IMG/VR virus record: IMGVR_UViG_3300028392_002123
Strand: one strand, 5' to 3'
From: a virus
Taxonomy: Duplodnaviria > Caudoviricetes
DNA: 64,000 nucleotides
Shown: one piece after another, positions 21,848 to 58,014 of the stretch
Layout of the letters: every line of letters starts with the position of its first letter
Numbering within the stretch: position 1 is the stretch's first letter
Program-made: the position numbers and the translations under genes
The notes under the pieces: model-generated
The model's input: the letters and a program-made list of their open reading frames with translations, nothing else
What the model was told of the DNA's origin: nothing
Databases searched by the model: none

Positions 21848-23171
21848 AATTGCTTGTTATTATACACTAGGTGGCATTAATTATAAAAATGGATTTGTAA
21901 CTAGTTGCCCACAACAAAGTGATCAGTTACATATCATTGAGAATACACAGGTAATCAAACCCAGTGAAATTATTAATAGTGCTGGATTTAAAAAACATAG
22001 ACAAGAAATGATGTCTGGCACTTGGAGTAAAGGCTGTCATTTATGTCAGGAAGTAGAAGAAGCCAACGCAGGTAAAACCATGCGTGATGATCAGCCAGCT
22101 GATGAAACTTACTACGATGCCGACACAGGCGCAATTAAGTTTGATGGTGTCCATCATGTGGAACTTCGTTTCAGTAATGCTTGTAACATGGCCTGCTTAC
22201 ATTGCAGTGAAGTGTACAGCAGTGGCTGGATGACCAAGTTAAAACACTACGAAGCAGATCAAGAAGATTGGGATAATAAACTTATACAATTAACAAGAGT
22301 CATGCATCGTGCTAATCCAGCTGATGATCTGAGTATAGGCATCAGTATAGAACAAATGACTGAAATTGTCACGGATCTAAATGCAAATTTTCCTTTAATA
22401 GAAAAAGTAGACTTTGCAGGCGGCGAAGTACTGTATCAAAAACAGTTTTTCCCCTGTCTAGAACTTCTGGGACAACATCCAAATGCCAAAAATATGACAT
22501 TGTGTTTCCACAGTAATTTTAATGCCAAGTTTGATCCAGCAAAGCTCTATGAATTACTACTGCCCTTTGGCAAAGTTACAATCATGATGAGCATTGACAG
22601 TGGTAAAAATATCTATCCTTATTTTAGAACCGGTGACTGGAACGTGTTAAAAACAAACATAGCGGCATTCAAAGCCTTGGACAAGTCCAAGAAATTTGAC
22701 ATGAACTTGGTTTGTACTACCAGTGCTTATCAAATCATGGACATTGAAGATGTCATGGAAAGCTTCCTAAGCTTGGACATTGATTGGATAAACAGCAGTA
22801 TTGTATACACTCCTAGATATCTAAGCCCTGCACTAATGATGCACAATTTTGAAGAACATGTTCGTGCAGACTTGGCCAAGGCAAGACAAGTTATAGACAA
22901 AGAAAAAGAAAAAAGATTTGCAGATTTGGAAACGTATTCCACGCTAAGATCATGGCGTAAAGGCAAACAACATTTTGCCGACATTGACAGCGCATACGAA
23001 GCCCTTGACAACATCGAGGATTACGTGTATAATTTTAAAACAGATATAAAACAATACGAAGCCTTTCTTGTGTACATAAGAAAGACTGATATGATATGGA
23101 AGCAAAGCTTCAATGATCATTTTACAAAATATCAATATATTGATAACAAAATAGTAAGGGTGACCCAATGA
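21840..23171 (+). CDS. Radical SAM protein with N-terminal twitch-like domain
   Basis: ACYY...SCP...GCHLC; CNMACLHC; AGGE. Confidence 0.85.
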   Translation: MDKIACYYTLGGINYKNGFVTSCPQQSDQLHIIENTQVIKPSEIINSAGFKKHRQEMMSGTWSKGCHLCQEVEEANAGKTMRDDQPADETYYDADTGAIKFDGVHHVELRFSNACNMACLHCSEVYSSGWMTKLKHYEADQEDWDNKLIQLTRVMHRANPADDLSIGISIEQMTEIVTDLNANFPLIEKVDFAGGEVLYQKQFFPCLELLGQHPNAKNMTLCFHSNFNAKFDPAKLYELLLPFGKVTIMMSIDSGKNIYPYFRTGDWNVLKTNIAAFKALDKSKKFDMNLVCTTSAYQIMDIEDVMESFLSLDIDWINSSIVYTPRYLSPALMMHNFEEHVRADLAKARQVIDKEKEKRFADLETYSTLRSWRKGKQHFADIDSAYEALDNIEDYVYNFKTDIKQYEAFLVYIRKTDMIWKQSFNDHFTKYQYIDNKIVRVTQ

Positions 23172-24016
23172 TAGATTTTTCAGCATCAAATAAATTATAT
23201 GAAACTAGAGACCCCAGTATAGAAGTTAATTTGTACAACTTTGATGGCTTGGATATTCCATTTAATCCAGAATGGACCAATATAGGAATTAACCTAAGTG
23301 GTGGTGCAGATAGTAGTTGTCTGCTAATGTTGTTGTCTAAGATAATTACTAGAACCGGCAGTAAGTGTCGCGTTCATGTTATTCAACATCTACGTTGCTG
23401 GAGTATTCGTCCCTGGCAGGGCCCAGTGGCCATGGCAGTATTCAATAAGTTCCAGGAATTATTTCCTAACATTGAATATATTCGTTATAAAAATTTTATA
23501 CCGGTTGGCTTAGAATGGGGTGTAATTGGACCAATTACCAAAGATGATAAAGGCAGAGATCGTAGCGGTGATCAAATTATTGTTGACGAGTTTAACAATT
23601 ATATGTTGTACACAGAAAAATTAGATGCTATGTATAACGGCACTAGTAGAAATCCAGATGTAGACTTTGCCAGTAAGATGATGAACAGAGAATTATCCCC
23701 CGAAGAAGGAAATCTCAAAGATATCATGTTTAAGAGATTGGGCGGATTGATTATTCTTCCATTTAAGTTTGTACGCAAGGATTGGATCGTTGCAGAATAC
23801 TATAGACAGGGCATGGAAGAACTTTATAACACCACACGTAGCTGTGAAGGCAACGTTGGCCATGCATCCAGTGCAGATATAATTCCTACCTTAGATGACT
23901 ATAAACCAGGACAGTATGTACCTGTTTGCAATGAATGTTTCTGGTGTAACGAACGTAACTGGGCAGATAGCAAGTTAGAGGAAACATTAAAACTTTTAGA
24001 GGATCAATCTAATTGA
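23168..24016 (+). CDS. QueC-like PP-loop (adenine nucleotide alpha-hydrolase) protein
   Basis: LSGGADS PP-loop; C-terminal TRSCE...CNECFWCNER Zn-binding pattern as in QueC. Confidence 0.55.
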   Translation: MIDFSASNKLYETRDPSIEVNLYNFDGLDIPFNPEWTNIGINLSGGADSSCLLMLLSKIITRTGSKCRVHVIQHLRCWSIRPWQGPVAMAVFNKFQELFPNIEYIRYKNFIPVGLEWGVIGPITKDDKGRDRSGDQIIVDEFNNYMLYTEKLDAMYNGTSRNPDVDFASKMMNRELSPEEGNLKDIMFKRLGGLIILPFKFVRKDWIVAEYYRQGMEELYNTTRSCEGNVGHASSADIIPTLDDYKPGQYVPVCNECFWCNERNWADSKLEETLKLLEDQSN

Positions 24017-43782: not shown

Positions 43783-44643
43783 TTATTTTCCCCATCCGTT
43801 AGACCATATGTCTACATGTAATCGTGGACTATATCTATAACCACGTGCCAGTGCTTCGTCTGCAATATGTTTAGTATTACTAAAATATGCTTGGTCGGTT
43901 CCGCCCACAGGCATAACATATACTTGACCTACAAAACCTGCACGTCTATATTCAGATACTGCTTGATTGACTTCTTCAAAGTCTTCTTGCTTGTCTATGA
44001 CAAATTTTAAATACGCATAACCACGTTGTTGATACTCCATGACAACATCTGGTTTAATAGCATCTTGCCAAGATTCGCCACTGGCACTGAGTTTGGGACT
44101 AACACTGAATGTAAGTTGATCTCTGCTTAGATGGTAGTCATTGAGTAAGAAACGTCTAAAGTCGTCGTGTAAATGTTGAGTACCATTTGTTTCAAATGTA
44201 AGATTACGTAGATCCATCATTCTGGGATGACTTAATAAGCTGGGATAAAGTTGTTGCCAACCTAGCAATGGTTCGCCGCCTGTGACAACAAGATGTACAT
44301 CATTGCCGTTAGTTTGTACCCACTTGTGATTAGGTGTTAGCTTTAACATTTCTTCCACTGCTTCATCGATACTGTAGTATGGACTTAGATGTTTAAAAGA
44401 TGGATGCCAACTAGCATAACTATCACAACCAGTTTGTGATAGTGGCAGATCCATAAAAGTTTTATATAAATGAACACGAGCTCCGATATCATCGGGTTCT
44501 GTGGTCTTTTCACCTGCAGGTAATCCAAAGCCCGCACATTTAAAGTTACAGCCGAATGTACGAAAGAACACACTGGGTACACCAATAAAGCGACCTTCTC
44601 CTTGTGCGCTGTAAAAAATTTCACTTACTTTAATTTTATCCAT
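43783..44643 (-). CDS. queE: 7-carboxy-7-deazaguanine synthase (radical SAM)
   Basis: VSEIFYSAQGEG...GVPSVFFRTFGCNFKC, CDS, VTGGEPLL, ETNGT, SVSPKL, YSPRLH. Confidence 0.85.
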   Translation of the reverse strand: MDKIKVSEIFYSAQGEGRFIGVPSVFFRTFGCNFKCAGFGLPAGEKTTEPDDIGARVHLYKTFMDLPLSQTGCDSYASWHPSFKHLSPYYSIDEAVEEMLKLTPNHKWVQTNGNDVHLVVTGGEPLLGWQQLYPSLLSHPRMMDLRNLTFETNGTQHLHDDFRRFLLNDYHLSRDQLTFSVSPKLSASGESWQDAIKPDVVMEYQQRGYAYLKFVIDKQEDFEEVNQAVSEYRRAGFVGQVYVMPVGGTDQAYFSNTKHIADEALARGYRYSPRLHVDIWSNGWGK

Positions 44644-44872
44644 AATTTAATCCCGATGTATGTCCTTTAAGTTTATTTCCGTATTTTAACACAAGTAAAC
44701 ATTCTAAGTCAACAGTGATATCACCTTCTATTTTGTACCAATCAGATTCTTCTGGGTCGGAAAATTTATCGTACATACTTTGAATTGTACAGTTAGAAAA
44801 ATTATCTTTTAACCAATATTCTAACTGTTTGTATTCCCAAAAGTTTAGATATATCAACTGCTGACTCTTCAT
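44636..44872 (-). CDS. Hypothetical protein
   Basis: 78 aa ORF tiling the operon. Confidence 0.55.
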   Translation of the reverse strand: MKSQQLIYLNFWEYKQLEYWLKDNFSNCTIQSMYDKFSDPEESDWYKIEGDITVDLECLLVLKYGNKLKGHTSGLNYG

Positions 44873-45174
44873 TTGCTTTCTGTGTCAAATATGTTAGACC
44901 ATTTTTTAAGTTTTTCTTTCTTTTCGATCTTAGCTTTATTTAGGTCTAGAATATTTAAAACGTTCTGTTCAATTAAGATGTCGATCATAGCAAGAACATC
45001 TCCTACTTCGCGTTCTAACATTTTATTATGTGGTATACCTTCTTTATAATGTAGTGTATCGATGCCAAATCTACGTATCTTACTAACTTCTACAATTACT
45101 TCAGCACATTCTTCTTGTAGAATGCCCAGAGCTTCTTCAATTTTATTCATTTCTTTAGTTCTTCCATGAGCCAA
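44869..45174 (-). CDS. MazG-like NTP pyrophosphohydrolase
   Basis: LQEECAEVIVE...LEREVGDVLA (ExxE...ExxD). Confidence 0.7.
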   Translation of the reverse strand: MAHGRTKEMNKIEEALGILQEECAEVIVEVSKIRRFGIDTLHYKEGIPHNKMLEREVGDVLAMIDILIEQNVLNILDLNKAKIEKKEKLKKWSNIFDTESK

Positions 45175-45494
45175 TCCTGTGCCGCATCTCTGACAAAGGG
45201 ATATTTTTTTGCTACTTCATCATCTTTGGACATTTCCATTATTAGTTTTTTCATTACTTTAACAGTCATCATCCAATCTTCTACTGATATTGTATTGCCG
45301 CTAGCACTTTTAATAGTACCATCAACGTTGAAAATAAGAACTGGGTCGGGATTACCGATTTGTATAGCATTTGTGGGACTGGTTGACCATACCGGCTTAG
45401 ATCCATTTGAACTCATGTATAAACCAGATGAACCCACAGCACCTGCAGAATTTACAGGAATAGCACCGTATCCTGGATGTATGTTTGTAGACAT
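45147..45494 (-). CDS. Hypothetical protein
   Basis: 115 aa, Gly/Ser-rich N-terminus. Confidence 0.6.
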   Translation of the reverse strand: MSTNIHPGYGAIPVNSAGAVGSSGLYMSSNGSKPVWSTSPTNAIQIGNPDPVLIFNVDGTIKSASGNTISVEDWMMTVKVMKKLIMEMSKDDEVAKKYPFVRDAAQDWLMEELKK

Positions 45495-46258
45495 TATCTA
45501 GGAGCAAATTCTTGTTGCATTTTGATATTGTCAAAGAATTCTTTCTTAGCACCGGGATCAGTTTTAAAGGATCCTTGTAATACTGTGGTCTGTGTTAGAC
45601 TAGAGTGTGCCATAATGCCACGATTCTCACAGCACCCGTGTGTGGCTTGAATGTATACACCTAAGTTTTCTGCTCCAGTGGCTTTTTGGATTTCCCTAGC
45701 AATGTCATTACAAAGTTCCTCTTGGAGTGTACCTCGTCTAGCACACCACTGAGCAATGCGAGTATACTTAGACAAACCAATGAGCTTCTCGGCAGCAATG
45801 ATTCCAATGTATGCAACTCCGCTAACTGGTTGATGATGATGGCTACACATACTGCGAAGCTCACTACGGACCACAAGCATACCTTCATAACGATCCGCGC
45901 TGTCATTTGGAAACGCTGTTGCGTCTGGTGCTGGTTCATATCTTCCTGCCATTATTTCATTGAAGTACATCTTGGCAAGTCGTCTTGCTGTGCCTTTACT
46001 ATTGGGATCGTTCTCCCTATCAATAAGCAAACGATCTAGCACTAATTCAAATGCTTCTGTTGCTTCGTCGATAAGACGTTCCTTTTGTTCCTCGTCAACG
46101 TATTCGCTGATATTGTCTCCTGCCCAGAAACGTTTACCTTCACGTTTCATTTTGAAACGTAGATGATCTCCAAGGTATGCTTCTTCGTAGCCTTTGTCAT
46201 CGTCGCCCTGCATGTCTGCACCTGCAAGTATATTTTTAAGTGTTAGTGGTTCAGTCAT
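45494..46258 (-). CDS. folE: GTP cyclohydrolase I
   Basis: TARRLAKMY, LRSMCSHHHQP, GLSKYTRI, RRGTLQEEL, ATHGCCENRG. Confidence 0.93.
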   Translation of the reverse strand: MTEPLTLKNILAGADMQGDDDKGYEEAYLGDHLRFKMKREGKRFWAGDNISEYVDEEQKERLIDEATEAFELVLDRLLIDRENDPNSKGTARRLAKMYFNEIMAGRYEPAPDATAFPNDSADRYEGMLVVRSELRSMCSHHHQPVSGVAYIGIIAAEKLIGLSKYTRIAQWCARRGTLQEELCNDIAREIQKATGAENLGVYIQATHGCCENRGIMAHSSLTQTTVLQGSFKTDPGAKKEFFDNIKMQQEFAPR

Positions 46259-46275
46259 TTGTATTCCTTTGTTAT

Positions 46276-46304
46276 ATTGTATAGTGTTATTTAGGTTCTG
46301 TCAA
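46276..46304 (-). promoter_or_regulatory. sigma70-type promoter
   Basis: TTGACA-17 nt-TACAAT upstream of folE. Confidence 0.75.
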
Positions 46305-47096
46305 GCGTAAAATAAGGTTGGTTTTAACTGCTGTGTCCAATACTGATAGATCTTTTTCCATCGTTTCTGCATACTTTAATAATGCACTAGTATCTTTTGG
46401 AAAACACATACCGCCAAAACCAAAACTACCATCAGGTCCTGGAACTCGCATATGACTATCTCCAATACGTGCATCTTGTTTAATTAAATTTGAAACAACA
46501 TCATAGTTCAATCCAGCTTTATTAGCTAATTGATACAGCTCATTCATAAAAATTACTTTGGTAGCTAGGAAACTATTAATAGCATATTTGGCCAATGCGG
46601 CATCACCGATGCTACAAAATTTAACGGTTTCTAAATTTTTCTGTGACATTCTTATAATACGCTCGGCTTCATGGCGATATGCAGAAACTGCGCCGCCAAT
46701 GATGGCAAACTTACCATTGATATAATCTTCAAAGGCATTGGCCGCTGTTAAGAATTCAGGAGCATGAACTAAGTTAATATATTGTTCTTGCAGTCTTTGA
46801 TAAACATTGGGCGGAGCAGTGACTTTACTGATAATAACTCCGTTAAAGTTGACCTGTGTTAATTTAGCTAATACATTTTCTAAAATACTAGTATCTGCTG
46901 TTCCATCTGGTCCTTGCGGACTAGGCACACATACAAATACTGCATCATAATTTTGAATATCATTATATGATGCCATCCATCCTTTTGCTGTGTCGATTGC
47001 TACTAAATCAATATTCTGACCAATGTTTAGTTTGATTGATTCGTATATAGTGCCACCAACAAACCCCATACCTATAACTGCTATTTTTGTTGTCAT
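46287..47096 (-). CDS. UDP-glucose/GDP-mannose dehydrogenase family protein (lacks C-terminal domain)
   Basis: IGMGFVG, VCVPSP, SKVT, APEFL, KYAINSFLATK, GFGGMCFPKD (catalytic Cys); only 269 aa. Confidence 0.8.
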   Translation of the reverse strand: MTTKIAVIGMGFVGGTIYESIKLNIGQNIDLVAIDTAKGWMASYNDIQNYDAVFVCVPSPQGPDGTADTSILENVLAKLTQVNFNGVIISKVTAPPNVYQRLQEQYINLVHAPEFLTAANAFEDYINGKFAIIGGAVSAYRHEAERIIRMSQKNLETVKFCSIGDAALAKYAINSFLATKVIFMNELYQLANKAGLNYDVVSNLIKQDARIGDSHMRVPGPDGSFGFGGMCFPKDTSALLKYAETMEKDLSVLDTAVKTNLILRLTEPK

Positions 47097-47563
47097 TTTA
47101 ATTCTTTAATCATTTCTGCTTGTGCTACACGTTTGCGTAAGTTGCTACTGGAAAACGAATGATCTCTGCCATTGAATACTAATTCAATTCCGCGCATTCC
47201 ACACTCTTCCATGCCTGAAAAGTTTTTCTGTTGGTATTCTACACCCAGTACACGAACGTCAACCGGAAGTATCAATAATAAGTCAATGAGATCTTGTTCT
47301 GTTTGATATACAACAACTTCATCCACATAACGGCAAGCGGCCAACTGTATTTGTCTCTCTACAATACTTTGAACAGGAGGATTTTTACTATCGGGTCTAT
47401 CAATAGTTGGATCTGTTTGCAGGCCTGCAATTAAATAATCACAGTGATTCTTTGCTTCTGCTAACATGGCAATATGACCTGCATGTAGCAAATCAAATGT
47501 ACTAAAGGTAATACCTATTTTTTTACCTGCTTCTTTTAACTGTCTTACTTTATTAAATATCAT
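47093..47563 (-). CDS. Cytidylyltransferase (TagD/RfaE-like HxGH family)
   Basis: TFSTFDLLHAGH, GLQTD, CRYVDEV, SSSNLR. Confidence 0.8.
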   Translation of the reverse strand: MIFNKVRQLKEAGKKIGITFSTFDLLHAGHIAMLAEAKNHCDYLIAGLQTDPTIDRPDSKNPPVQSIVERQIQLAACRYVDEVVVYQTEQDLIDLLLILPVDVRVLGVEYQQKNFSGMEECGMRGIELVFNGRDHSFSSSNLRKRVAQAEMIKELK

Positions 47564-47946
47564 GGTGAATTAGATTGTAAATTTTGATATTCTTCGGTGC
47601 TATTATCCTGCCCGGGCCCTGCTTTTACAAGTTCTTTAATAAATGTGTAATGCTTATGCGCCTCGTCTAATGCAGGATATTTACTGCAAAGAATCTTTAG
47701 TTCTTCTTCTTCCTGCATTTTTTTCATTACCCAATGTCCGATAACATTTATATCATAAGCACCGGCATTATGCTGTATTTGTATAGTATTATCTATTCGC
47801 TGCCACCCACCGTTGCCGCCTGTACTAACTTCAAAACACTTATTAGCACCATTCCATTGAACAGCGCCGGTGATACTAGGTAAATTATAGCTAGTGTCCG
47901 TTTGATACCAATTAGGAGAGGTTCCGTAGCTTTGTATTTTAATCAT
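47560..47946 (-). CDS. Hypothetical protein
   Basis: 128 aa ORF, ATGA-coupled on both sides. Confidence 0.65.
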   Translation of the reverse strand: MIKIQSYGTSPNWYQTDTSYNLPSITGAVQWNGANKCFEVSTGGNGGWQRIDNTIQIQHNAGAYDINVIGHWVMKKMQEEEELKILCSKYPALDEAHKHYTFIKELVKAGPGQDNSTEEYQNLQSNSP

Positions 47947-49040
47947 TTAATTCTTTCTAACAAGACTTTGGCAGAAAAGAAGTTTTCGGTTAAGTCTTGT
48001 GTTTGTTTTTTGATATATGATAAGCGAGTGTTATAATAATCCATGTGAGTCATAATAGCGCGACATAGATCTAGACGATATACTGTATACGCATCATAAC
48101 TTTCAGTCCACTTACTGGGATATTTAAACATGTCTGTGTACATTTCACTATAGCTTAATCTATCTGGGACAAATGGTATAGCATCAACTACCGCACCTTC
48201 ATAGCAACTAATGCCTAAAGTTTCTTGTAGATTCGCACTGAACACTAACTTGGCTTGACCTAATAAAGAATGATATTCGTCTTTGGTTAATTGCTTGTCT
48301 TGGCAAACAACAAATTCATACTGCGGTAAGTGTGTAGCTAAGTCTCGAAAAATCTCAACTTGCTTCTCTGGTGCGATGCGATGCGGGAAAAGAATTAGGT
48401 CACGTTTAACTATGCCTTTATAAGGAGCCAACGTGTCCTGCATATACTCCATAGGCCAACCTGTGCGTACAAATCTAGGATCTTCACCTTTTAAGATTTC
48501 ATCTAGATGTTCGCTGAACCAAGGATTTTCTGTAGGATAATCATTTAACAGATTAGTATAAAACATTGTAACGTGAAAGTCAGTGGCAAAGTAATTATGA
48601 TCAAACGCCGAAAAGAAACTTTTCTCAGCGTGTCTGACCCAAGGCTTATCTCCGACTAAGCGTCCAAGAAAGTCTTGAGGATCATAACTGCCAGCATGCC
48701 ATAAGCCATGTGTAGTTACTGGAATGCCCAGCAACTCGCTCATATACTTTAAGTTTATGATACCTGGATGCCAAGCATCGGTAAAGATAAAATGATCGCC
48801 AGCCTTGACGGATCCTGCACAAAAAAGTCTTCCAAGCTGTTCAACTTGGCTTGCCTTATAGATATTAGTACCCCCAAAATTAAGAAATGCACCAGGAGTA
48901 GTGGCTGTAGGAATATCGCTAGGGCCCGAGATAATTTGAACATTATGTCCTTCTTTCTTTAGTAATTCAGGTACGTGAGTTTTCCACTGCCCTGTATAAC
49001 GTGTGTCAACTGCTTCTAAATCAACTAGAAATATTGTCAT
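47943..49040 (-). CDS. GT-B fold glycosyltransferase-like protein
   Basis: FPHRIAPEKQVE, FSANLQETLGISCYEG..VDAIPFV (E-x7-E donor-binding motif); start placed at ATG 49040 (MTIFLVDLE). Confidence 0.7.
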   Translation of the reverse strand: MTIFLVDLEAVDTRYTGQWKTHVPELLKKEGHNVQIISGPSDIPTATTPGAFLNFGGTNIYKASQVEQLGRLFCAGSVKAGDHFIFTDAWHPGIINLKYMSELLGIPVTTHGLWHAGSYDPQDFLGRLVGDKPWVRHAEKSFFSAFDHNYFATDFHVTMFYTNLLNDYPTENPWFSEHLDEILKGEDPRFVRTGWPMEYMQDTLAPYKGIVKRDLILFPHRIAPEKQVEIFRDLATHLPQYEFVVCQDKQLTKDEYHSLLGQAKLVFSANLQETLGISCYEGAVVDAIPFVPDRLSYSEMYTDMFKYPSKWTESYDAYTVYRLDLCRAIMTHMDYYNTRLSYIKKQTQDLTENFFSAKVLLERIK

Positions 49041-49557
49041 CGATTTCAGTGTCCTGTGTGTATTGATCCCAATAGGTAAAAGTTTTTGCGGACATAAGAT
49101 CATGTAACTGATGAGTCCATACGCCTGCATTAGTTGCACCCCATGTACGATCATCCAACTTAATTGTAGCATTGTAATTAAATTGATTAATGTAAGGTAA
49201 TTTTACACTGATCATAGGAACAAACCTATTGCGTTCGTTTAAGCCACTTTCAAGTAGTCCTTCTGCCTGTGCAACATCTAGATCTAATGTACACCAATAA
49301 TCTGCATCGAGACATCCGTAGATCATCAATTCCCATTTGGCCCAATCACCGCCATTATTGACAGTGATGTCGGGGAAACTTTGACTAGTACCAAAATATA
49401 TATGTTGAACTTTGTGTTCTTCGGCTAATTTAAGAATCTCTTGTACTGGCTGAACTCCTACCACGAACAATGTTAGCATACCATAGCAACGAGTATGTTC
49501 GACTTCATAGCCTGTAAAATATTTAACACCCTGTCGTTCTTCTGTGTTTAATCCCAT
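49021..49557 (-). CDS. Hypothetical protein within the deazaguanine/sugar operon
   Basis: 178 aa; coupled between the MDR and GT genes; no family recognised. Confidence 0.7.
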   Translation of the reverse strand: MGLNTEERQGVKYFTGYEVEHTRCYGMLTLFVVGVQPVQEILKLAEEHKVQHIYFGTSQSFPDITVNNGGDWAKWELMIYGCLDADYWCTLDLDVAQAEGLLESGLNERNRFVPMISVKLPYINQFNYNATIKLDDRTWGATNAGVWTHQLHDLMSAKTFTYWDQYTQDTEIDDNISS

Positions 49558-50471
49558 TTGATATATCCTCTGCTGTAATTATTTGGACGATTTGCACCAT
49601 CTGCAAATGCCTGTTGCCATTCTGAATCTCTATTATAGCCTTTTGTCCAAAAACTGTCAACATCGATATCACCGTTTGTAATCCATTGCTCGGCATCTTT
49701 CATACATTGATAAAAGCGATCTGTGCGTGGACTTGGAAAGATCATTGTACAAGCTTTCCAAAGTAAATTACTAAAGTCTGTTGTAACTGTTTTCTGTGCG
49801 CCAAATACTACTAATGCTTCGTTGTTTAAAATGTCTGCATCAAAAATATCTGCACGACTACTTAGATCAATGACAACATCAAAGCGACCATTATAAGCCG
49901 GTGTCGATCTATCTTGCCATAAATCTTTGTTACTGTTACCGACTACTGTGACTTCAAAATCTAGATGATTAAGTTTAATAGTATTATAAGCAACCCATGC
50001 TAGAAAGCCACTGCCGATAATTAGTAGTCGACGACCAGGTCCACTGCGTTCTGCAATTTCACGAATAGGTTGCATTACTACATTCACACCACAGGCCACA
50101 GGTTCTAGGATATAACGAGGATGTGCTTCTGGTACTTTTACATATTCTTTGTTTTTAGCCACATACTGATCTGCGTATGCAGGTTCACCGCGTGTGGCCA
50201 CATAGTCTCCTGCAACCACATCAATGACTTTAGGACCGGTTCTAATTACTCGGCCTAGACCTTCGTGTCCTTGCATGTGCAATGGTAATGGTCCAAAATT
50301 GCCCATCATCATATCAATGTCACTGCGACATACACCTGTCATCACAGATTGTACAAATATTTCATCTTCTTTTAAAAATGCCGGAACATCATATACGCTC
50401 TCGACAAACAATCCATTTCCTGTTGTGGCTAATACTCTGTTCATAGGTCTTCTATTAATTGATGGATCCAT
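49548..50471 (-). CDS. Zn-dependent medium-chain dehydrogenase (MDR/GroES-like)
   Basis: TGVCRSD, GHEGLG, LEPVACG, IIGSG; no structural 4-Cys lobe. Confidence 0.75.
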   Translation of the reverse strand: MDPSINRRPMNRVLATTGNGLFVESVYDVPAFLKEDEIFVQSVMTGVCRSDIDMMMGNFGPLPLHMQGHEGLGRVIRTGPKVIDVVAGDYVATRGEPAYADQYVAKNKEYVKVPEAHPRYILEPVACGVNVVMQPIREIAERSGPGRRLLIIGSGFLAWVAYNTIKLNHLDFEVTVVGNSNKDLWQDRSTPAYNGRFDVVIDLSSRADIFDADILNNEALVVFGAQKTVTTDFSNLLWKACTMIFPSPRTDRFYQCMKDAEQWITNGDIDVDSFWTKGYNRDSEWQQAFADGANRPNNYSRGYIKWD

Positions 50472-51292
50472 TGATCTTGTAAAAATTGTTCTTTCCAGAA
50501 CTTATTGTTATTTAGGTTTTCTATCGCATTTTTAATCATGCTAATATAAGGACCAGCTGGGCAACCGCCAAATGCTGTCATATAATCCCCTAGTTCAAAC
50601 TTGATAGTTTTTCCGCTGTTTAGATGAAATTCAATATAAAATTCATCTTGTGTATTATTTTTCCAACTCGCTTGAAACAACCATGTAGTATTGTTAGTAA
50701 TACCAATCTCACAAAAATCATCGATGCCAGTGTTGTTACTATCTTTAACTCTTTTGTATAAAGTTATACCTTTTTTGTATTCTGTTAATGCTGTATACAT
50801 ACTGAGTAAGTGTGGCATTAAGTCCCTGCTGACTCCACCAAAGGCCTTGGACTTGTCAGTGAACCAAGGACTAGACGGAACACCATCTTTCCTGCTCCAA
50901 CAAACAACCACCTTCTTGCTGAGTTTTACCAAGTCTCGATAACCAGACATTTCTGTGCGGAACTGATTGTTCCTAACCATCATTATTTTAGTGTTAGGAT
51001 AGTCGTCGATTAACTTTGTCCATGTAGTAGAATTTTCTACCCCAGGCTTTTCAATAATTAACAAACTAGTATGTTCGGCAACTTCTCTTGCAACAGATTC
51101 ATGCGTCCAGTTCGGTGTACCGATATAGACAATTTTAAAATTTTTATGATTGTCTATGGCTTCTTGTACTTGTCGATAGTCGGCCGCTTTATCTGTTGCA
51201 GGATCTACAGTAACTACTTGGTAATTGAGTTGTTTAAGCCATAAGGCATATTGTTGCCCCATGCCTAAACCTATCACTAAGGCTTTATCCAT
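50441..51292 (-). CDS. Gfo/Idh/MocA-family oxidoreductase
   Basis: IGLGMG, IGTPNWTH, IIEKP, GGVSRDLMPH. Confidence 0.75.
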   Translation of the reverse strand: MDKALVIGLGMGQQYALWLKQLNYQVVTVDPATDKAADYRQVQEAIDNHKNFKIVYIGTPNWTHESVAREVAEHTSLLIIEKPGVENSTTWTKLIDDYPNTKIMMVRNNQFRTEMSGYRDLVKLSKKVVVCWSRKDGVPSSPWFTDKSKAFGGVSRDLMPHLLSMYTALTEYKKGITLYKRVKDSNNTGIDDFCEIGITNNTTWLFQASWKNNTQDEFYIEFHLNSGKTIKFELGDYMTAFGGCPAGPYISMIKNAIENLNNNKFWKEQFLQDQWIHQLIEDL

Positions 51293-52829
51293 TTTGTGCT
51301 TGTTTTAAAAGATTATCTGCTTCATCTTGATCCCAATCTTCCGCACCTTCTGCATCGTTGTCACTGCCTTTATCTTCATTGGAAAATAACATACTATGCG
51401 CGGCCGCGCTGGTCTTAAGAGTTCTCTTGCCGTTAAAATCTGCTAACAATTTGGCAGCACGATCTAATTCAGTAAATGGTGTTTCACTGGTAAACACACG
51501 ATTAACTAGTTCAGTAACATAGATAACATTACGTGGAACCCAGTTACTAAGTTCACCATTCTTACCCTTAGCTGGTGCCCATAGACCTGGATCTGGTTTA
51601 TGTAACAAACATGCAGTATCTGTAAGAGCATTAGCACGTTGAACTGATTCAATGTGTTGATAAACATTATGTGCCATCATTAAGAAGTAGCTAAAACTAT
51701 CCCATGATGTTCTGCTTTCTTTGCCTAGTTTGTTCAAGTCGCCGGGTTTGTAATAACAAACATCACCCATGGTCATACGCTCACCAATAGGACTACTCCA
51801 AGGCCAAGCAATACTACTGCCAGCAATACGTCTATCGTCAATAGCCTTGTCCATGATGTAACTAAAACGATTGTTGCGATGTACGTGTTGAGTATAAACT
51901 TGACCATAGGCAGTTGCTAAGAAAGGGCTGGCACAGTCAAAAGTGACTTTCATGTTAGGATTAACATGCTCGCGTAGGTTACGTTGAACAGCAGTTAGTA
52001 AACAAGCCAGTTCTAATTTACTTGTACCCAAGAAATGAATAACATCGCGTCCAGGTTCTAGTAATTTTTCATCGCGCATTGTAACCAACCTGCGTAACAT
52101 CAAGTCTGCGTCCTTCATGTTATTACCGCCCATGGCCCAACCTTCAAATGGATAATGCTTGACAGCTTCATACCATGTATCAGCATCTTCGTTATTACCA
52201 CCTTGCAGTACATTCAAGAATTTAGTTTTACCTTGACGATGTTTTAAGAAGAAATCATTGTTAAACAATGTTCCACGCAGGCAGTCGCCAAAATCTTTAA
52301 GACCTGTACGTTCGCGATTAATTGGAGCCGCACTCCAAGTAGGCAAGTCCAGTACCATACTATAGTCAGCGGTAAACTCTAGCCAATTAAGAATAGCCAT
52401 ACGAGTTTTATCCGCGGCGCCTACATAACCAGTATCGCCTTGTTTTTCCCAGAAACGTTGCCAGTCAAAGTTAATAACACCTTTACCGATCTGGAATCCA
52501 CCACTGTCGCCTAGGATAAAACTATCTGGATTAGTTCGGTCACGTTGTTGAATCATTGATTCTTCTACATAACTTTTCTTAATGTCTAACTGTGCATGTC
52601 CAGCAGAATAAAGTGCATCGGGATAATAGAAGTAGGCCTGTTCTTTATTTAAGAAATTAAAGCCTTCCATTCCATTTTCAAACTCTTGGGGAATTCTATT
52701 CTTTGGAACAAATTCTTCTTGTTGTTGTTTACTAACAAAAGTTTGATAAAACCCGCTAATACTTGGCAAAAAGACTGCATAGTCTTTGTTGCGAGTTTTT
52801 AAATCAACACGGGTTTTATGATCAAGCAT
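51285..52829 (-). CDS. dpdA: TGT-fold guanine transglycosylase, DpdA-like (deazaguanine insertion)
   Basis: GDSGGFQ, MVLD, VLQGG, GWAMGG, HFLGT, TFDCAS (both TGT catalytic Asp positions); sits with folE/queD/queE near the DNA polymerase. Confidence 0.7.
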   Translation of the reverse strand: MLDHKTRVDLKTRNKDYAVFLPSISGFYQTFVSKQQQEEFVPKNRIPQEFENGMEGFNFLNKEQAYFYYPDALYSAGHAQLDIKKSYVEESMIQQRDRTNPDSFILGDSGGFQIGKGVINFDWQRFWEKQGDTGYVGAADKTRMAILNWLEFTADYSMVLDLPTWSAAPINRERTGLKDFGDCLRGTLFNNDFFLKHRQGKTKFLNVLQGGNNEDADTWYEAVKHYPFEGWAMGGNNMKDADLMLRRLVTMRDEKLLEPGRDVIHFLGTSKLELACLLTAVQRNLREHVNPNMKVTFDCASPFLATAYGQVYTQHVHRNNRFSYIMDKAIDDRRIAGSSIAWPWSSPIGERMTMGDVCYYKPGDLNKLGKESRTSWDSFSYFLMMAHNVYQHIESVQRANALTDTACLLHKPDPGLWAPAKGKNGELSNWVPRNVIYVTELVNRVFTSETPFTELDRAAKLLADFNGKRTLKTSAAAHSMLFSNEDKGSDNDAEGAEDWDQDEADNLLKQAQNG

Positions 52830-53163
52830 TTACATAGCCATTTGATGTATGTTTCATAGTTGGCGCCAGATCCAACCATGGGCTTTTGTATAACCCTACG
52901 TGTACTTTTAATTTCTTAGGAGTACGATCCCTTGTGATTTGAATGTTCACATCATACGTGAAACTTTGTTCTTTCAAAATGATCTCAGTGATTTGATAAT
53001 CATAGATCCAATTTTGATTACGCATATCATTAAGATATGCATCGAACAAATGAGCAGGTAACTCACCTAGGCCGTCTTGTAACAGGCCGTCATGTACTTC
53101 TGCAATCTTAAGCAGATCATATTTAATATCATTGATATTAATGGGGGCTCTTGAAATATTCAT
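52822..53163 (-). CDS. Hypothetical protein
   Basis: 113 aa ORF between QueD-like and DpdA-like genes. Confidence 0.65.
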   Translation of the reverse strand: MNISRAPININDIKYDLLKIAEVHDGLLQDGLGELPAHLFDAYLNDMRNQNWIYDYQITEIILKEQSFTYDVNIQITRDRTPKKLKVHVGLYKSPWLDLAPTMKHTSNGYVNA

Positions 53164-53177
53164 ATTGTTATTCCTTA

Positions 53178-53558
53178 TTAAATTTCATATTCTATGTGGC
53201 AACCGTTTTCGCCATCTTCAGAGACTTCGATCCAAATTTCTCGATTAGGATACTTCAGCGCGATAACTCCGTATAAGTCGTCTGCAATCATTTCACAACT
53301 CTTATAGTTAAGTTCTAAAACGGAACCTTGACCATTATACAACGACTCGAGCCATCGTTTGAACTGGATGAACTCGATGTCCCTGTCATCGTGGAACACA
53401 TCAATTGACACCCTGAAATGAAAAATGTGGCGATGAGGACTAGCAAGAAACGATACATCATATTCATCTCCTGTGGCTAGATTAGGGTCTGTTGCCGCCG
53501 CGGGATAGCAGTGAATACCTTCTTTACGAAAGGTAATCCATATTTTCTTTTTAATCAT
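53178..53558 (-). CDS. queD: QueD-like / 6-pyruvoyltetrahydropterin synthase-like T-fold protein
   Basis: EGIHCY...HRHIFH (Zn His), DRDIEF, SCEMIA, IEVSEDGEN; pathway context. Confidence 0.6.
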   Translation of the reverse strand: MIKKKIWITFRKEGIHCYPAAATDPNLATGDEYDVSFLASPHRHIFHFRVSIDVFHDDRDIEFIQFKRWLESLYNGQGSVLELNYKSCEMIADDLYGVIALKYPNREIWIEVSEDGENGCHIEYEI

Positions 53559-55356: not shown

Positions 55357-58014
55357 TTAGCTAAACAACAAATCAAAGGCATTTTTTTGATCACTGGCTC
55401 TAATATCCCACTCAAGTACACCAATCAAGTTATCAATTTTATTATTGATAATTGTTTCTTCCATGGCTTGATGATCAAAGCCCATTTCGTCGGTGAACCA
55501 ACTGGGCAGTCTCATTTCATCAATAGGATATGCAATACTGGTAATGCCCATTGGATTATTCTTTAGTTTACAGACAATAACTTTCATGCCGTCTGTTATT
55601 TCCATACTTCGGTTATCACTATATGCCTTGCGTAAACGATTCCAGTTAATGGCCGCCATGGCATGACCAACACCACACTTGCCAGTCTTATTAAAGACTT
55701 CTGTATGTTTGGTCAAGTTATTAACACGCTTGGGTGTGCCTTTTTCCCAACCTGGTCTATCCTTAAATGCTGTGCGGAATTCATTGATAGCATCAATCAC
55801 ATCCTGCTTGTCCTGGCCCAGCAGGACCATCATAAGAATTTTTTCCAAAAACTTTTGCATGAACTCAGGAGTGTCTGCTCGTTTCATATCAAGACCCATG
55901 GCCTTGATCTCTCCAGGTTCCCCGTCTTTGTCTTTGCGTTTGCCTTCTTTATCATAGATAAGAACTGCATAGCGTTTCTTGGTAATGTATAGACCTTTTG
56001 ACGCAACGACTTCACGACCTGCTTTAATAATTTCCCCTAGGTTAGTGGGAACATTAAACGCAGTATTCATAAACTGTGGGAATGTAGCATTAACTTCTTC
56101 GGCCACAGCATCATATAGTTCAATGACTTTTTCTCTAGACCAATCAACTTCATTACGAGTAATCTGTTCTTGATAAATCGGATAAGCACTAAAGTAACAA
56201 CTGTCAGTGTCACCGTAGATAATTGATTTACCTGTATGATCATATTCTCCGGTGAACATGGCATTAACCTGACTGGCCATATGTTTGGCAACCTGCCTGC
56301 CACTGAGTGTGGTACTCTGTCCTAGTCTGTGATCAAAGAATCTACTACCTGCATTTAACAACGCACCATATGCAGAGTTCAAATTAATTTTCTTAACCAG
56401 TTGTCGCTTGTCCCAATATTCTTCTGCTACTTTGTCGCCTGAATTAATTGCTTCTCTTAATTTCTTTTGTAGTTCTTTACGTTCACTGTACCAACGAGTG
56501 AGCAGGCCTGGAATAATACCCTGCTTTTCGTAGGTAAAGATTGTGCCATTGGCACTGAGCATCCAAGGCTTACCTTGTAGATAAATCAAGTCATGGGCTT
56601 CTGCCGCTGACATTTCTGTGGCAGTACCGTTCTCCCAATCAATGACAAGATCATAGGCCTTGTTCTTGGACATAACTTCATTGTACTCATGAATAGCAAA
56701 TTTACCATCCCAATAGTCAGCAAATGCTTTACCTGAATCTAACCACTGTTTAAGTTCTGATTTAGTTTGTTGTTGACGTACTTGTCCAATGATAGTTTCC
56801 GGACTCATATTAAGACTACGAATTAAACTAGGATACAGACTGTTCAAGTCCATGCTTCCAATCCAATCGTGTACGCCTTTTTTCGGATAAGCAACATAAG
56901 CGCCAGCGGCCTGCGTTTCACTGGACTCGCTGTGCTTACGGTCAGGTACAATTAAATTTCTGCTGTGTGCTTCGTTGATAACTGCTTGGTCTGTAACTGC
57001 CACAGCACCCATGGTAGTTGGTAATGTAACAGTATTTGCATGAGCCAATACATTGACAAGATCGATGAACTGTAATTTTTTATCCAGTTTAACCAGCAAC
57101 ATAGTGTCTTGTCTATTATAAGCAATAAACTTTTCAAAGTCATTGTTATATAATTGGTCCAATGTTCCTTCGTATTGGACTTTGTTTTCGCCTAGCTCAT
57201 ATTCTCCAACAAAGTCCAAGCGATAGCTGGGCAATTCATGATATGTGTATTTGCGATATAGTTCAAGATAGTCTAAGTGTATGCGTCCAATGAAATCATA
57301 GGTTTCCGACAATTTACCATACTTTTCATATTCACGTTTTCTGGGTTTTGAATCCCATAGACAAAATCTACGACTATGATCAGCGCCAAGTAACTTAATA
57401 ACACGGTTAACAGTATAAGGTACGTCGTAGCCTTCACTGTTCCAACCACTGATAGTGTCAGCATCATCTAGTAGACTAAGAAAGATGTCCAACATTTCTT
57501 CTTCGGTGTTACACAGTATGGTATTCTCAAACCTATTAACAATAGCTTCCGCTTGTTCCAAGCTCATCAGTGTTGGTTTGATACACAAGGTAACTAGCCG
57601 TTCTAACCAACTTAAATAAACAGTGATAGCAGTGATTGGATTAAAAGGATCACTGGGATCCGCAAAACCCTTTACCTTGTCAAATGCAACTTCGATGTCA
57701 AAGAATGCTTTGTTAAGGTTAGGCGCTTCCGCATTTAAATAGTTTTTCTCTAAACAACGATTCAGCGGTTTGATATCGCTTTCGTATAGTTGTTTATGTC
57801 CGTATACACGTTTTTCTTTTTCAAATGCTTTACGACTTGCTACAGCAACTTTGCTCAGTCTTTTACCGTCAATACTTGTGTATTTGCCTTTGTTATCCTG
57901 ATAATAAAATTCATAGTGCGCTGGAAATTGTTTATACTTTCTCTCACCGTCTATGCGTTCTACTACATTGATAATATCTTTTTCTTTGATGTAAACTGCG
58001 TCAATATAACTCAT
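55357..58014 (-). CDS. polB: Family B DNA polymerase with 3'-5' exonuclease (gp43-like)
   Basis: FFDIE (ExoI), GWNSEGYD (ExoII), YNRQD (ExoIII), DLNSLYPS, KINLNSAYG, YGDTDS, KKRYA. Confidence 0.95.
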   Translation of the reverse strand: MSYIDAVYIKEKDIINVVERIDGERKYKQFPAHYEFYYQDNKGKYTSIDGKRLSKVAVASRKAFEKEKRVYGHKQLYESDIKPLNRCLEKNYLNAEAPNLNKAFFDIEVAFDKVKGFADPSDPFNPITAITVYLSWLERLVTLCIKPTLMSLEQAEAIVNRFENTILCNTEEEMLDIFLSLLDDADTISGWNSEGYDVPYTVNRVIKLLGADHSRRFCLWDSKPRKREYEKYGKLSETYDFIGRIHLDYLELYRKYTYHELPSYRLDFVGEYELGENKVQYEGTLDQLYNNDFEKFIAYNRQDTMLLVKLDKKLQFIDLVNVLAHANTVTLPTTMGAVAVTDQAVINEAHSRNLIVPDRKHSESSETQAAGAYVAYPKKGVHDWIGSMDLNSLYPSLIRSLNMSPETIIGQVRQQQTKSELKQWLDSGKAFADYWDGKFAIHEYNEVMSKNKAYDLVIDWENGTATEMSAAEAHDLIYLQGKPWMLSANGTIFTYEKQGIIPGLLTRWYSERKELQKKLREAINSGDKVAEEYWDKRQLVKKINLNSAYGALLNAGSRFFDHRLGQSTTLSGRQVAKHMASQVNAMFTGEYDHTGKSIIYGDTDSCYFSAYPIYQEQITRNEVDWSREKVIELYDAVAEEVNATFPQFMNTAFNVPTNLGEIIKAGREVVASKGLYITKKRYAVLIYDKEGKRKDKDGEPGEIKAMGLDMKRADTPEFMQKFLEKILMMVLLGQDKQDVIDAINEFRTAFKDRPGWEKGTPKRVNNLTKHTEVFNKTGKCGVGHAMAAINWNRLRKAYSDNRSMEITDGMKVIVCKLKNNPMGITSIAYPIDEMRLPSWFTDEMGFDHQAMEETIINNKIDNLIGVLEWDIRASDQKNAFDLLFS

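Follow-up and report, generated by a model that had tools for sequence, protein, structure and literature searches.

Candidate sugar-decorated 7-deazaguanine DNA: a DpdL-type gene module with an embedded glycosyltransferase in an uncultured lake jumbo phage

A gene run in the window (the whole 64,000-nucleotide stretch of phage DNA analysed here) is best read as a module for a sugar-decorated 7-deazaguanine in phage DNA, a reading to which, judging from sequence, we give about an even chance. The module would be replication-linked and of the DpdL type known from the 7-deazaguanine (dDG) pathway of phage phiST, with a dedicated glycosyltransferase added. If this is correct, the phage is predicted to carry a sugar-bearing DNA base; a paper describing a sugar-bearing 7-deazaguanine DNA base was not found in our literature search.

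The DNA comes from an uncultured lake jumbo phage. All 15 ORFs of the run (43783-53558) lie on the minus strand, and neighbouring ORFs mostly abut or overlap by 1-31 nt (Table 1). A sequence-only reading had described a co-oriented run of deazaguanine and sugar genes with these limits, and this description was confirmed, with one family call corrected from QueD-like to DpdL; profile matches agree with its FolE, MazG-like, QueE, Gfo/Idh/MocA, Zn-MDR and HxGH nucleotidyltransferase calls. It had also placed a polymerase and a clamp upstream. The family-B polymerase stands, on the Pfam matches of its relatives; the 245-aa clamp-like protein gave no match in HMM searches, and its features resemble gp45/PCNA clusters (score 0.94). 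The clamp-like family is found in 43 of 44 related loci, just before the transglycosylase. The deazaguanine module sits in a replication block, adjoining polymerase and clamp.

Table 1. Genes of the run and its upstream context in the window
Feature	Coordinates	Strand	Basis
QueE-type radical-SAM CDG synthase	43783..44643	-	phrog_2076 E 2e-54
78-aa protein	44636..44872	-	family searches without match
MazG-like nucleoside triphosphate pyrophosphohydrolase	44869..45174	-	phrog_4856 E 4e-19; PF03819 E 0.002
115-aa protein	45147..45494	-	family searches without match
GTP cyclohydrolase I (FolE)	45494..46258	-	PF01227 E 7e-38; NF006824 E 1e-38
Short NDP-sugar-dehydrogenase-like enzyme (accessory)	46287..47096	-	PF03721 and PF00984 match, PF03720 does not
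HxGH nucleotidyltransferase, rfaE-domain-II/TagD-like (accessory)	47093..47563	-	PF01467 E 4e-11
128-aa protein	47560..47946	-	family searches without match
GT4-like (GT-B) glycosyltransferase, 364 aa	47943..49037	-	predicted start M46 of 409-aa ORF
178-aa core protein, orphan alpha/beta fold	49021..49557	-	AF2 pLDDT 86
Zn-MDR alcohol/polyol dehydrogenase-like (accessory)	49548..50471	-	ADH_N E 2.3e-9
Gfo/Idh/MocA-type NAD(P) oxidoreductase (accessory)	50441..51292	-	PF01408 E 5.8e-6
DpdA-like DNA transglycosylase (predicted), TGT superfamily, 514 aa	51285..52829	-	fold and active-site residues
113-aa protein	52822..53163	-	family searches without match
DpdL orthologue, 126 aa	53178..53558	-	QueD paralogue without catalytic Cys; LxxxHRHxF signature
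Sliding-clamp-like protein, 245 aa	54178..54915	-	context, directly upstream of run; gp45/PCNA-like features
Family-B DNA polymerase	55357..58014	-	context; 65-70% identity to relatives with PF03104 and PF00136

The corrected call concerns the 126-aa protein. It is without the QueD cysteine, and its motif L38-x3-H42-R-H44-x-F46 is the LxxxHRHxF signature of DpdL (PMC10516641), so a QueD identity was rejected. The protein shares 57% identity with DpdL of phage ACP17, 54% with that of PA5oct and 36% with phiST gp040; in a Pfam search PF01242 was not matched. DpdL is the proposed decarboxylase of 7-carboxy-7-deazaguanine (CDG) in the phiST pathway; the reaction itself has never been demonstrated, and co-expression of dpdA and dpdL alone in E. 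coli, from either ACP17 or phiST, did not give dDG (PMC10516641). With DpdL in place of QueD as the T-fold protein, the base to expect is no longer CDG, which had been suggested as a possible sugar acceptor, but whatever DpdL makes, by proposal 7-deazaguanine.

Neither QueD nor QueC was found within the 148-kb contig, which is incomplete; QueD activity must come from elsewhere in the phage or from its host. The QueE-like protein matches five QueE NCBIfam models, each below cut-off, and its C32, C36, C73 and TGGEP motif are kept in 34-36 of 36 relatives. A MazG-like gene belongs to the run; in phiST, likewise, a MazG gene adjoins DpdL.

For the 514-aa protein neither Pfam, PHROG nor NCBIfam gave a match, and the earlier TGT/DpdA-like call is borne out by fold and active-site residues. 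Its AF2 model (pLDDT 91.8) retrieved TGT structures for all of the top 50 Foldseek hits (E 2e-8), aligned to TGT with VIA Z 17-18 over about 300 residues, and also matched phage DpdA models, those of nt-1 and phiST among them. D108, D161 and D298 are invariant and Q209 lies within a conserved NVLQG motif; in the alignment, D108, D161 and Q209 correspond to D102, D156 and Q203 of Z. mobilis, and D298 was assigned to D280 by matching the FDxASPF and DMFDC motifs. The catalytic Asp pair is kept. The C-terminal tail bears an xxLF motif. The protein is one member of a very large clade that lacks annotation and is found beside deazaguanine genes: QueE in PA5oct, whose transglycosylase is 37% identical, QueF, QueC and FolE in Vibrio phage 2.275.O, and PTPS, FolE and QueC in an integrase-bearing island. 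DNA is its predicted target.

For the glycosyltransferase the likeliest start is M46 of a 409-aa ORF (49037), which matches the starts of its relatives. It has no significant Pfam match of its own, and the GT4/GT-B assignment follows from three lines of evidence: the matches of the 29 family members (10 to PF00534, best E 3e-7; 5 to PF13692; 6 to PF13524), an EX7E motif (E272-x7-E280, with R220 and K225 invariant), and language-model (Atlas) features matching viral GT1-type clusters. Its relatives in Phosso, PA5oct and ACP17 are 50%, 39% and 35% identical. The QTMAN_N domain (PF12038) was detected neither in the family nor in five phage records.

We next consider linkage, counted over the 44 related loci with enough flank. 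The glycosyltransferase lies between DpdL and FolE in 42 of them and is a core gene of the module. Many of these loci share ancestry, and the count partly reflects synteny by descent. Relatives of the enzyme lie 0-3 kb from DpdL in five further groups of cultured phages (PA5oct, ACP17, Phosso, Xanthomonas X1/BUDD and Burkholderia BCSR5), whose clusters differ in gene order and DpdA clade. The expectation of conserved linkage held for the glycosyltransferase and for the 178-aa family (at least 36 of 44 loci) and failed for the Gfo/Idh/MocA and MDR genes (6-7 of 44). The subtype of the glycosyltransferase tracks the presence of an NDP-sugar epimerase, seen in 12 of 14 against 1 of 42 loci (Fisher p 2e-9, with no correction for phylogeny).

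These data bear on an alternative in which the DNA carries plain dDG (or dCDG), as in phiST, while the glycosyltransferase and the sugar enzymes work on another target, such as virion proteins, the host envelope or products of a 33-kb glycosyltransferase/radical-SAM island. Nothing but a common time of expression, early or middle, would then hold the glycosyltransferase in the cluster. GT4 enzymes are generalists that usually act on lipids, glycans or proteins, and the many other glycosyltransferases of the window and the island are presumably possible users of activated sugars. A relative in Xanthomonas phage PhiXhv-12 (27% identity) stands beside GlmS and a deacetylase, away from deazaguanine genes. 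Moreover, no O- or N-nucleophile is apparent at C7 of 7-deazaguanine, which leaves the acceptor atom of a sugar-bearing base unexplained, and phiST-type phages hold DpdL, DpdA3 in phiST, and unglycosylated dDG without any glycosyltransferase (PMC10516641). We still regard this alternative as unlikely, because relatives of the enzyme keep to a distance of 0-3 kb from DpdL or DpdA despite several rearrangements and in phages of six host genera, and in ACP17 (order h178-DpdA-GT-DpdL-QueE) dpdA and dpdL flank the gene, their stops and starts overlapping with it. The resistance of PA5oct DNA to G-containing restriction enzymes, whose chemistry is unsolved (PMC12191111), counts for a sugar-bearing base, and so does the missing dDG when dpdA and dpdL alone were co-expressed, phiST itself having no glycosyltransferase.

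The sugar-nucleotide genes vary between loci and are accessory: the Gfo/Idh/MocA, MDR, cytidylyltransferase-like and short dehydrogenase genes, present in 6-7 of 44 loci, do not belong to the conserved system. The earlier argument for a sugar on the inserted base is partly supported; the sugar on the base itself is a prediction. The Gfo/Idh/MocA gene was seen in 8 loci, each time as a pair with the MDR gene immediately behind the transglycosylase; the MDR protein weakly matches polyol and alcohol dehydrogenase models. The HxGH nucleotidyltransferase gene, present in 7 loci, scores 82 bits with TIGR02199 and 59 bits with TIGR01518, both below cut-off. The presumed UDP-sugar dehydrogenase retains PF03721, PF00984 and the catalytic-Cys motif GGMCFPKD but lacks the C-terminal UDP-binding domain; it is not a truncation artefact, as 9 of 10 family members are 256-326 aa long.

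Among the closest known systems is the phiST DpdL/DpdA3 dDG pathway (Cui, Hutinet et al., NAR 2023, PMC10516641). Both clusters hold FolE, QueE, DpdL with its signature, a MazG-like protein and a TGT-fold transglycosylase beside replication genes, and both are without QueC. They differ in that QueD is missing from the present cluster, the transglycosylase is a 514-aa member of another clade instead of the 259-aa DpdA3 (a weak profile match, hhalign 53%; Foldseek E 2e-3), and the glycosyltransferase, 178-aa orphan and sugar enzymes are embedded here only. The cultured phages ACP17 (Acidovorax) and PA5oct (Pseudomonas) share the glycosyltransferase family and DpdL, ACP17 also the 178-aa protein and PA5oct the transglycosylase clade; the stretches examined are without the four accessory genes, and ACP17 differs further in encoding a QueD itself and in its DpdA, which is more remote (hhalign 96%, E 3e-9).

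We infer the chemical steps, and with them both the action of the transglycosylase on DNA and the acceptor of the sugar, as follows. FolE and QueE, with QueD supplied from outside the module, would convert GTP to CDG, which DpdL would process further, by decarboxylation to 7-deazaguanine in the published proposal. The 514-aa enzyme, possibly tethered to the clamp encoded just upstream and partnered by the 178-aa protein, would exchange guanine in phage DNA for this base. The GT4-like enzyme would add a sugar, either on DNA after insertion, as with T4 hydroxymethylcytosine, or on the free base beforehand. The four accessory enzymes may make or tailor the donor here, with an epimerase or no extra enzyme in their place in relatives, and the MazG-like protein presumably trims the nucleotide pool. 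In animal tRNA, TGT inserts a 7-deazaguanine derivative and a glycosyltransferase (QTMAN or QTGAL) then adds a hexose; that system differs in its RNA substrate and in its acceptor, the queuine cyclopentenediol, which this phage cannot make.

Glycosylation of a soluble intermediate (a pterin or free deazapurine), with a product other than a DNA base, seems to us quite improbable. Cyanobacterial pteridine glycosides and N-glycosylated pyrrolopyrimidine antibiotics would be precedents, FolE, a T-fold protein and a GT-B enzyme would equally suit pteridine glycoside synthesis, and the undemonstrated DpdL reaction leaves room for it; against it stand the constant presence of QueE and of the TGT-fold base-exchange enzyme and the position of the module in the replication block, and we are aware of no role that such a metabolite could have for a lytic phage. 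Least probable of all is transfer of sugar to another base or to canonical DNA, independently of deazaguanine. To our knowledge, phage DNA glycosyltransferases act on hydroxymethyl-pyrimidines, as in T4, and a recent report describes thymidine hypermodifications of a sugar type in Pbunaviruses; a thymidylate-synthase-type hydroxymethylase, which could supply another acceptor, was however not found in the incomplete 148-kb contig, and across lineages no partner keeps as close to the glycosyltransferase as DpdL. The T4 alpha- and beta-glucosyltransferases, acting on 5-hydroxymethylcytosine, resemble the sugar-bearing deazaguanine proposed here in pairing a phage GT-B enzyme with a non-canonical base, and sugar type seems to diversify between relatives in both; the base differs, and the present enzyme is GT4-like with an EX7E motif and has DNA as a proposed acceptor.

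The remaining proteins lack recognised families. The 178-aa fold gave no match in PDB or AFDB except one unnamed homologue, and in ACP17 its gene lies directly upstream of DpdA (HMM E 6e-27). The 113-aa family was counted in 15 of the 44 loci, and in 17 when all loci are taken, its gene mostly following DpdL, and the 128-aa family in 36 loci, accompanying type-A glycosyltransferases.

The window sits in a 148-kb IMG/VR viral contig that is estimated to be 42% complete and is therefore from a jumbo phage. It holds a single co-oriented minus-strand gene run in which most adjacent genes touch or share 1-31 nt (see table). Profile searches support the Gfo/Idh/MocA, ADH_N, CTP_transf_like, FolE, MazG-like and QueE-like assignments, bearing out the calls made for these genes from sequence alone (Gfo/Idh/MocA, MDR and nucleotidyltransferase among them). 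The 514-aa, 178-aa, 128-aa, 113-aa, 115-aa and 78-aa proteins had zero matches in Pfam, PHROG and NCBIfam, and isoelectric points did not separate DNA-binding candidates, all proteins of the run being acidic. A consensus scan revealed a perfect TTGACA-17-TATAAT 75 nt ahead of the 178-aa ORF, within the MDR gene at its 3′ end, and an 11/12 match immediately ahead of folE; these may be internal promoters dividing the run into three units. Upstream of the polymerase, two related loci (L005 and L006) carry runs of radical-SAM genes.

Genes and sequence features of the minus-strand run, listed in transcription order, followed by other features, with the number of related loci (44 with enough flank) that hold each family
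Feature	Coordinates	Strand	Loci (of 44)
Gene run	58014-43783	-	
Family-B polymerase	from 58014	-	
DUF3307 protein		-	
245-aa clamp-like protein		-	43
Two small ORFs		-	
126-aa T-fold protein (DpdL by signature)	53178-53558	-	41
113-aa ORF		-	
514-aa transglycosylase	51285-52829	-	
Tail motif AHSMLF (residues 477-482)	51384-51401	-	
Gfo/Idh/MocA dehydrogenase		-	7 (paired with MDR)
MDR dehydrogenase		-	7 (paired with Gfo/Idh/MocA)
TTGACA-17-TATAAT, perfect	49632-49660	-	
178-aa ORF	49021-49557	-	at least 36
Glycosyltransferase (GT; 364 aa from M46 of a 409-aa ORF)	47943-49037	-	42
128-aa ORF		-	
HxGH nucleotidyltransferase (cytidylyltransferase-like)		-	6
Short sugar dehydrogenase	46287-47096	-	6
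TTGACA/TATAAT, 11/12 match	46276-46304	-	
FolE		-	34
115-aa ORF		-	
MazG-like protein		-	
78-aa ORF		-	
QueE	43783-44643	-	24 (count limited by flank length)
ORF proposed as candidate QueC	23168-24016	+	
NDP-sugar epimerase (relatives)			11
Phosphoribosyltransferase (relatives)			31
HIT-family protein (relatives)			16
Phosphoribosyltransferase/HIT examples	L019:16121-16639; L084:16386-16772; PA5oct L001:15946-16380		
Amidoligase_2-like gene, Vibrio phage 2.275.O	L003:13726-14838		

The QueE-like protein matched phrog_2076 (E 2e-54) and five QueE NCBIfam models, all of the latter below cut-off. Its family keeps C32, C36 and C73 together with a TGGEP motif (34-36 of 36 relatives). The resulting spacing, C-x3-C-x36-C, is kept in the same 34-36 of 36 relatives; the usual spacing of the QueE cluster cysteines is CxxxCxxC or Cx14CxxC.

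The identification of the 126-aa gene as QueD-like is corrected: judged by signature and homology, it is DpdL. Residues L38-ASP-H42-R-H44-I-F46 form the signature LxxxHRHxF, whose substitution for the CxxxHGH of QueD defines DpdL, a protein proposed to decarboxylate 7-carboxy-7-deazaguanine (CDG) to 7-deazaguanine (Cui, Hutinet et al., PMC10516641). Identity to DpdL is 57% for phage ACP17 (E 3e-37) and 36% for Cellulophaga phage phiST (E 1e-8), and the family HMM matches both. When aligned with the QueD proteins of these two phages, the catalytic cysteine is confined to QueD, and the window protein has leucine. PF01242 (QueD) matched neither this protein nor anything else in the 148-kb contig; PF06508 likewise found no match in the contig, and the ORF proposed as a candidate QueC had no Pfam match at E ≤0.01. 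Since the 126-aa gene is DpdL, the nearest published system is the phiST pathway for 7-deazaguanine in DNA (dDG), in which QueD, QueE, FolE, MazG, DpdL and DpdA3 are encoded beside a polymerase.

The 514-aa protein belongs to the TGT superfamily. Its AF2 model (pLDDT 91.8) contains a TGT-type (beta/alpha)8 barrel, with about 300 residues aligned to TGTs at a VIA Z of 17-18. The top 50 Foldseek matches in PDB were all TGTs (E 2e-8), and BFVD models of phage DpdA/TGT proteins, including those of Vibrio phage nt-1 and phiST, also matched. Similarly, the best PDB matches of the family profile were all tRNA-guanine transglycosylases, with DSGGFQ aligned to DSGGYQ, LDxP to FDEC and NVLQG to GIQQG. 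In this profile alignment, D108, D161 and Q209 fall opposite the catalytic and base-binding residues D102, D156 and Q203 of the Z. mobilis enzyme. Sixty-four diverse members show no variation at D108 (DSGGFQ), D161 (LDxP), H265 and D298 (FDxASPF), and Q209 is part of the conserved NVLQG motif; from our reading of the motifs, D298 would be the counterpart of Z. mobilis D280. The same 64-member alignment has no invariant or near-invariant cysteine column for the CxCxxC...H zinc site of tRNA TGTs. Profile comparison by hhalign gave 96% with ACP17 DpdA and 53% with phiST DpdA3, the latter with a weak Foldseek match (E 2e-3). We read the protein as a predicted DpdA-type DNA transglycosylase; its original description as TGT/DpdA-like is borne out by the fold, the invariant aspartates and the deazaguanine-gene neighbours. 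Single-sequence PDB searches returned nothing for this protein, the 126-aa protein or the GT.

More than 7,600 homologues of the transglycosylase form 922 clusters at 50% identity. Members of its clade have QueE as a neighbour in PA5oct, and QueF, QueC, FolE and QueE in Vibrio phage 2.275.O. In the latter phage, the transglycosylase homologue is followed by a weakly Amidoligase_2-like gene (E 2e-4), with no GT there, and then by QueF, QueC and a glutamine-amidotransferase-like gene; the Amidoligase_2-like gene may represent another tailoring variant. The gene contexts of three distant homologues were inspected, of which one was on a short contig and one was uninformative. The third (33% identical, on a JGI contig) lies in an integrase-bearing, bacterial-looking island with PTPS, FolE, QueC and TRAP-transporter genes, a preQ0-type gene set with no glycosyltransferase.

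At its C-terminus the transglycosylase has a highly acidic, disordered tail. Ahead of this tail lies a conserved motif: AHSMLF in the window protein, NSFNSLF in PA5oct and, in the majority of relatives, F[DN]SLF. The pattern [SNGADTK][LMIF]F occurs within the last 70 residues of 69 of 82 distinct full-length relatives. This xxLF motif resembles clamp-binding peptides in sequence, and a clamp-like gene lies just upstream.

We next consider gene linkage across related loci, which were retrieved with an 11-member transglycosylase alignment. Clustering covered the ORFs of 80 IMG/VR loci plus 7 further loci, each with a transglycosylase relative, and families were counted over the 44 whose flanks were long enough. 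The sequence-only reading had placed the sugar enzymes inside the deazaguanine operon. Linkage is conserved for the GT and the 178-aa family, both of which are core members of the deazaguanine cluster; the Gfo/Idh/MocA and MDR pair turned out to be accessory. In most relatives folE is followed by a purine-type phosphoribosyltransferase gene, and some loci also carry a HIT-family protein; neither was found in the window or the 148-kb contig. The phosphoribosyltransferase could recycle guanine freed by base exchange.

Because the 44 loci share ancestry, cultured phages of other lineages provide stronger evidence of linkage. The GT of the PA5oct group is 39% identical to that of the window (order: TGT-like, GT, DpdL ... 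phosphoribosyltransferase, QueE), and that of ACP17 is 35% identical (E 5e-66; QueD, x, FolE, 178-aa-like, DpdA, GT, DpdL, QueE, where x is any other gene). These GTs are EST35_0317 in PA5oct and ASD50404 in ACP17. In Phosso, identity is 50% (clamp, x, DpdL, GT, x, FolE ... QueE), and the TGT-like gene is 170 kb from the GT cluster. The most divergent GTs are those of Xanthomonas phages X1 and BUDD (~25%; X1 order: FolE, PAPS-reductase-like, x, x, GT, TGT, DpdL, QueE) and Burkholderia phage BCSR5 (25%; DpdL ... GT, 446-aa protein, x, QueE ... FolE). Despite the differing order and DpdA clade, the GT lies 0-3 kb from DpdL in all of these phages. In contrast, Cellulophaga phages have DpdL and no GT, and their DNA carries plain dDG. 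A more distant GT relative (27%) is found in PhiXhv-12 within an unrelated amino-sugar cluster, a context of the kind expected if the GT acted on a non-DNA target; given the recurrent proximity to DpdL, we consider such a target unlikely for the window enzyme.

The GT looks like a real, sugar-specific transferase. It carries an EX7E motif (E272-x7-E280), and E280, R220 and K225 are invariant in 29 family members. Glycos_transf_1 (PF00534) matches 10 of the 29 (best E 3e-7), Glyco_trans_1_2 (PF13524) six and Glyco_trans_1_4 (PF13692) five; the window GT itself has no hit. Individual scores for a Glycos_transf_1-type C-terminal domain were E 0.001 for the PA5oct GT and 4e-6 for that of locus L020. 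Language-model features group the window GT with viral GT1-type clusters, and the family profile found no relative of solved structure. A queuosine mannosyltransferase of the QTMAN (GTDC1) type was considered and rejected, PF12038 (QTMAN_N) being unmatched at E ≤0.1 in the GT family alignment; nor did PF12038 match at E ≤1 in the 148-kb contig or in the ACP17, PA5oct, X1 and Phosso records.

The GTs of related loci fall into two types. For type B (~20-30% identity to the window GT), an NDP-sugar epimerase/dehydratase gene is next in 12 of 14 loci, and for type A in 1 of 42 (Fisher p 2e-9, uncorrected for phylogeny). Both types occur beside equally close transglycosylases: those of L013 (type B) and of L011 and L014 (type A) are all 69% identical to that of the window. 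Thus, the GT and the sugar enzyme appear to be exchanged jointly as a cassette.

The four sugar enzymes of the window are accessory. Gfo/Idh/MocA and MDR genes are invariably paired, directly after the transglycosylase. Among models, rfaE domain II and TagD came closest to the cytidylyltransferase-like protein, with scores under the cut-off in both cases. The gene called a UDP-sugar dehydrogenase matches the N-terminal and central UDPG_MGDP_dh domains and retains the catalytic cysteine motif; this much of the call stands, and the C-terminal UDP-sugar-binding domain is missing. Nine related phages have similarly short forms (256-326 aa), and the enzyme may act on a sugar not bound to nucleotide. 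Reduction of CDG to a hydroxymethyl acceptor by the HxGH enzyme together with the short dehydrogenase was rejected, as most relatives keep the GT but lack these enzymes.

The 178-aa protein has a confidently predicted fold (pLDDT 86), for which the sole match was one unnamed homologue, with no known fold relative. A GT-A-like identity, suggested by a weak Atlas hint, was dropped since the fold search matched no GT-A structure. In ACP17 a gene similar to the 178-aa ORF lies directly ahead of DpdA; our guess is that the protein is a transglycosylase partner.

From these data we propose a pathway in which FolE, QueD acting in trans and QueE would convert GTP to CDG, and DpdL would turn CDG into its product, probably 7-deazaguanine. 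The transglycosylase, perhaps associated with the clamp, would place this product into DNA, and the GT4-like enzyme would glycosylate the deazaguanine before or after insertion, with the accessory enzymes of the window phage supplying or tailoring the donor sugar. We put the chances that the outcome is a sugar-decorated 7-deazaguanine in phage DNA at about even. Chemistry is the weak point of this reading: 7-deazaguanine lacks an ordinary acceptor group, which leaves an unusual linkage to the sugar (perhaps of C-, N2- or ester type) or a DpdL reaction other than decarboxylation. An alternative is a soluble glycoside as the product; with a predicted DNA transglycosylase in the same cluster, we regard this as quite improbable. 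Attachment of the sugar to another DNA base, for which T4 offers a precedent, seems the most improbable: glucosylation of the T4 hmC type needs a dCMP/dUMP hydroxymethylase, and PF00303 was unmatched in the 148-kb contig (~42% complete).

Published observations lend circumstantial support to the glycosylated-deazaguanine pathway. PA5oct DNA, whose chemistry is unsolved, is resistant to G-containing restriction enzymes, and nucleases sensing modified G cut it (PMC12191111). No dDG was obtained when dpdA and dpdL of either ACP17 or phiST were expressed in E. coli, and the paper raises a possible need for further enzymes (PMC10516641).

A broader proposal, to which we assign a probability slightly under one half, is that glycosylated 7-deazapurine DNA defines a class of phages with a dedicated GT4-like enzyme, the type of sugar being diversified by swapped cassettes of GT and sugar enzymes. 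Among its members would be thousands of uncultured jumbo phages from freshwater and marine habitats, as well as PA5oct, ACP17, Phosso, Xanthomonas X1/BUDD and Burkholderia BCSR5. For pyrimidines, DNA bases that carry a sugar are known in T4 and its relatives. Our literature search found no sugar-bearing purine or deazapurine DNA base and, specifically, no glycosylated deazaguanine in DNA; the 2023 NAR paper on dDG does not mention any glycosyltransferase (PMC10516641). If true, the proposal would extend DNA hypermodification by a chemically new class, relevant to how phages withstand restriction enzymes, CRISPR and modification-dependent nucleases. It would also give a function to a transglycosylase clade whose members are unannotated, explain the 'modified G' of the therapy-candidate phage PA5oct, and might bear on the failure of dpdA and dpdL alone to give dDG in E. 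coli. Both PA5oct and ACP17 are in culture.
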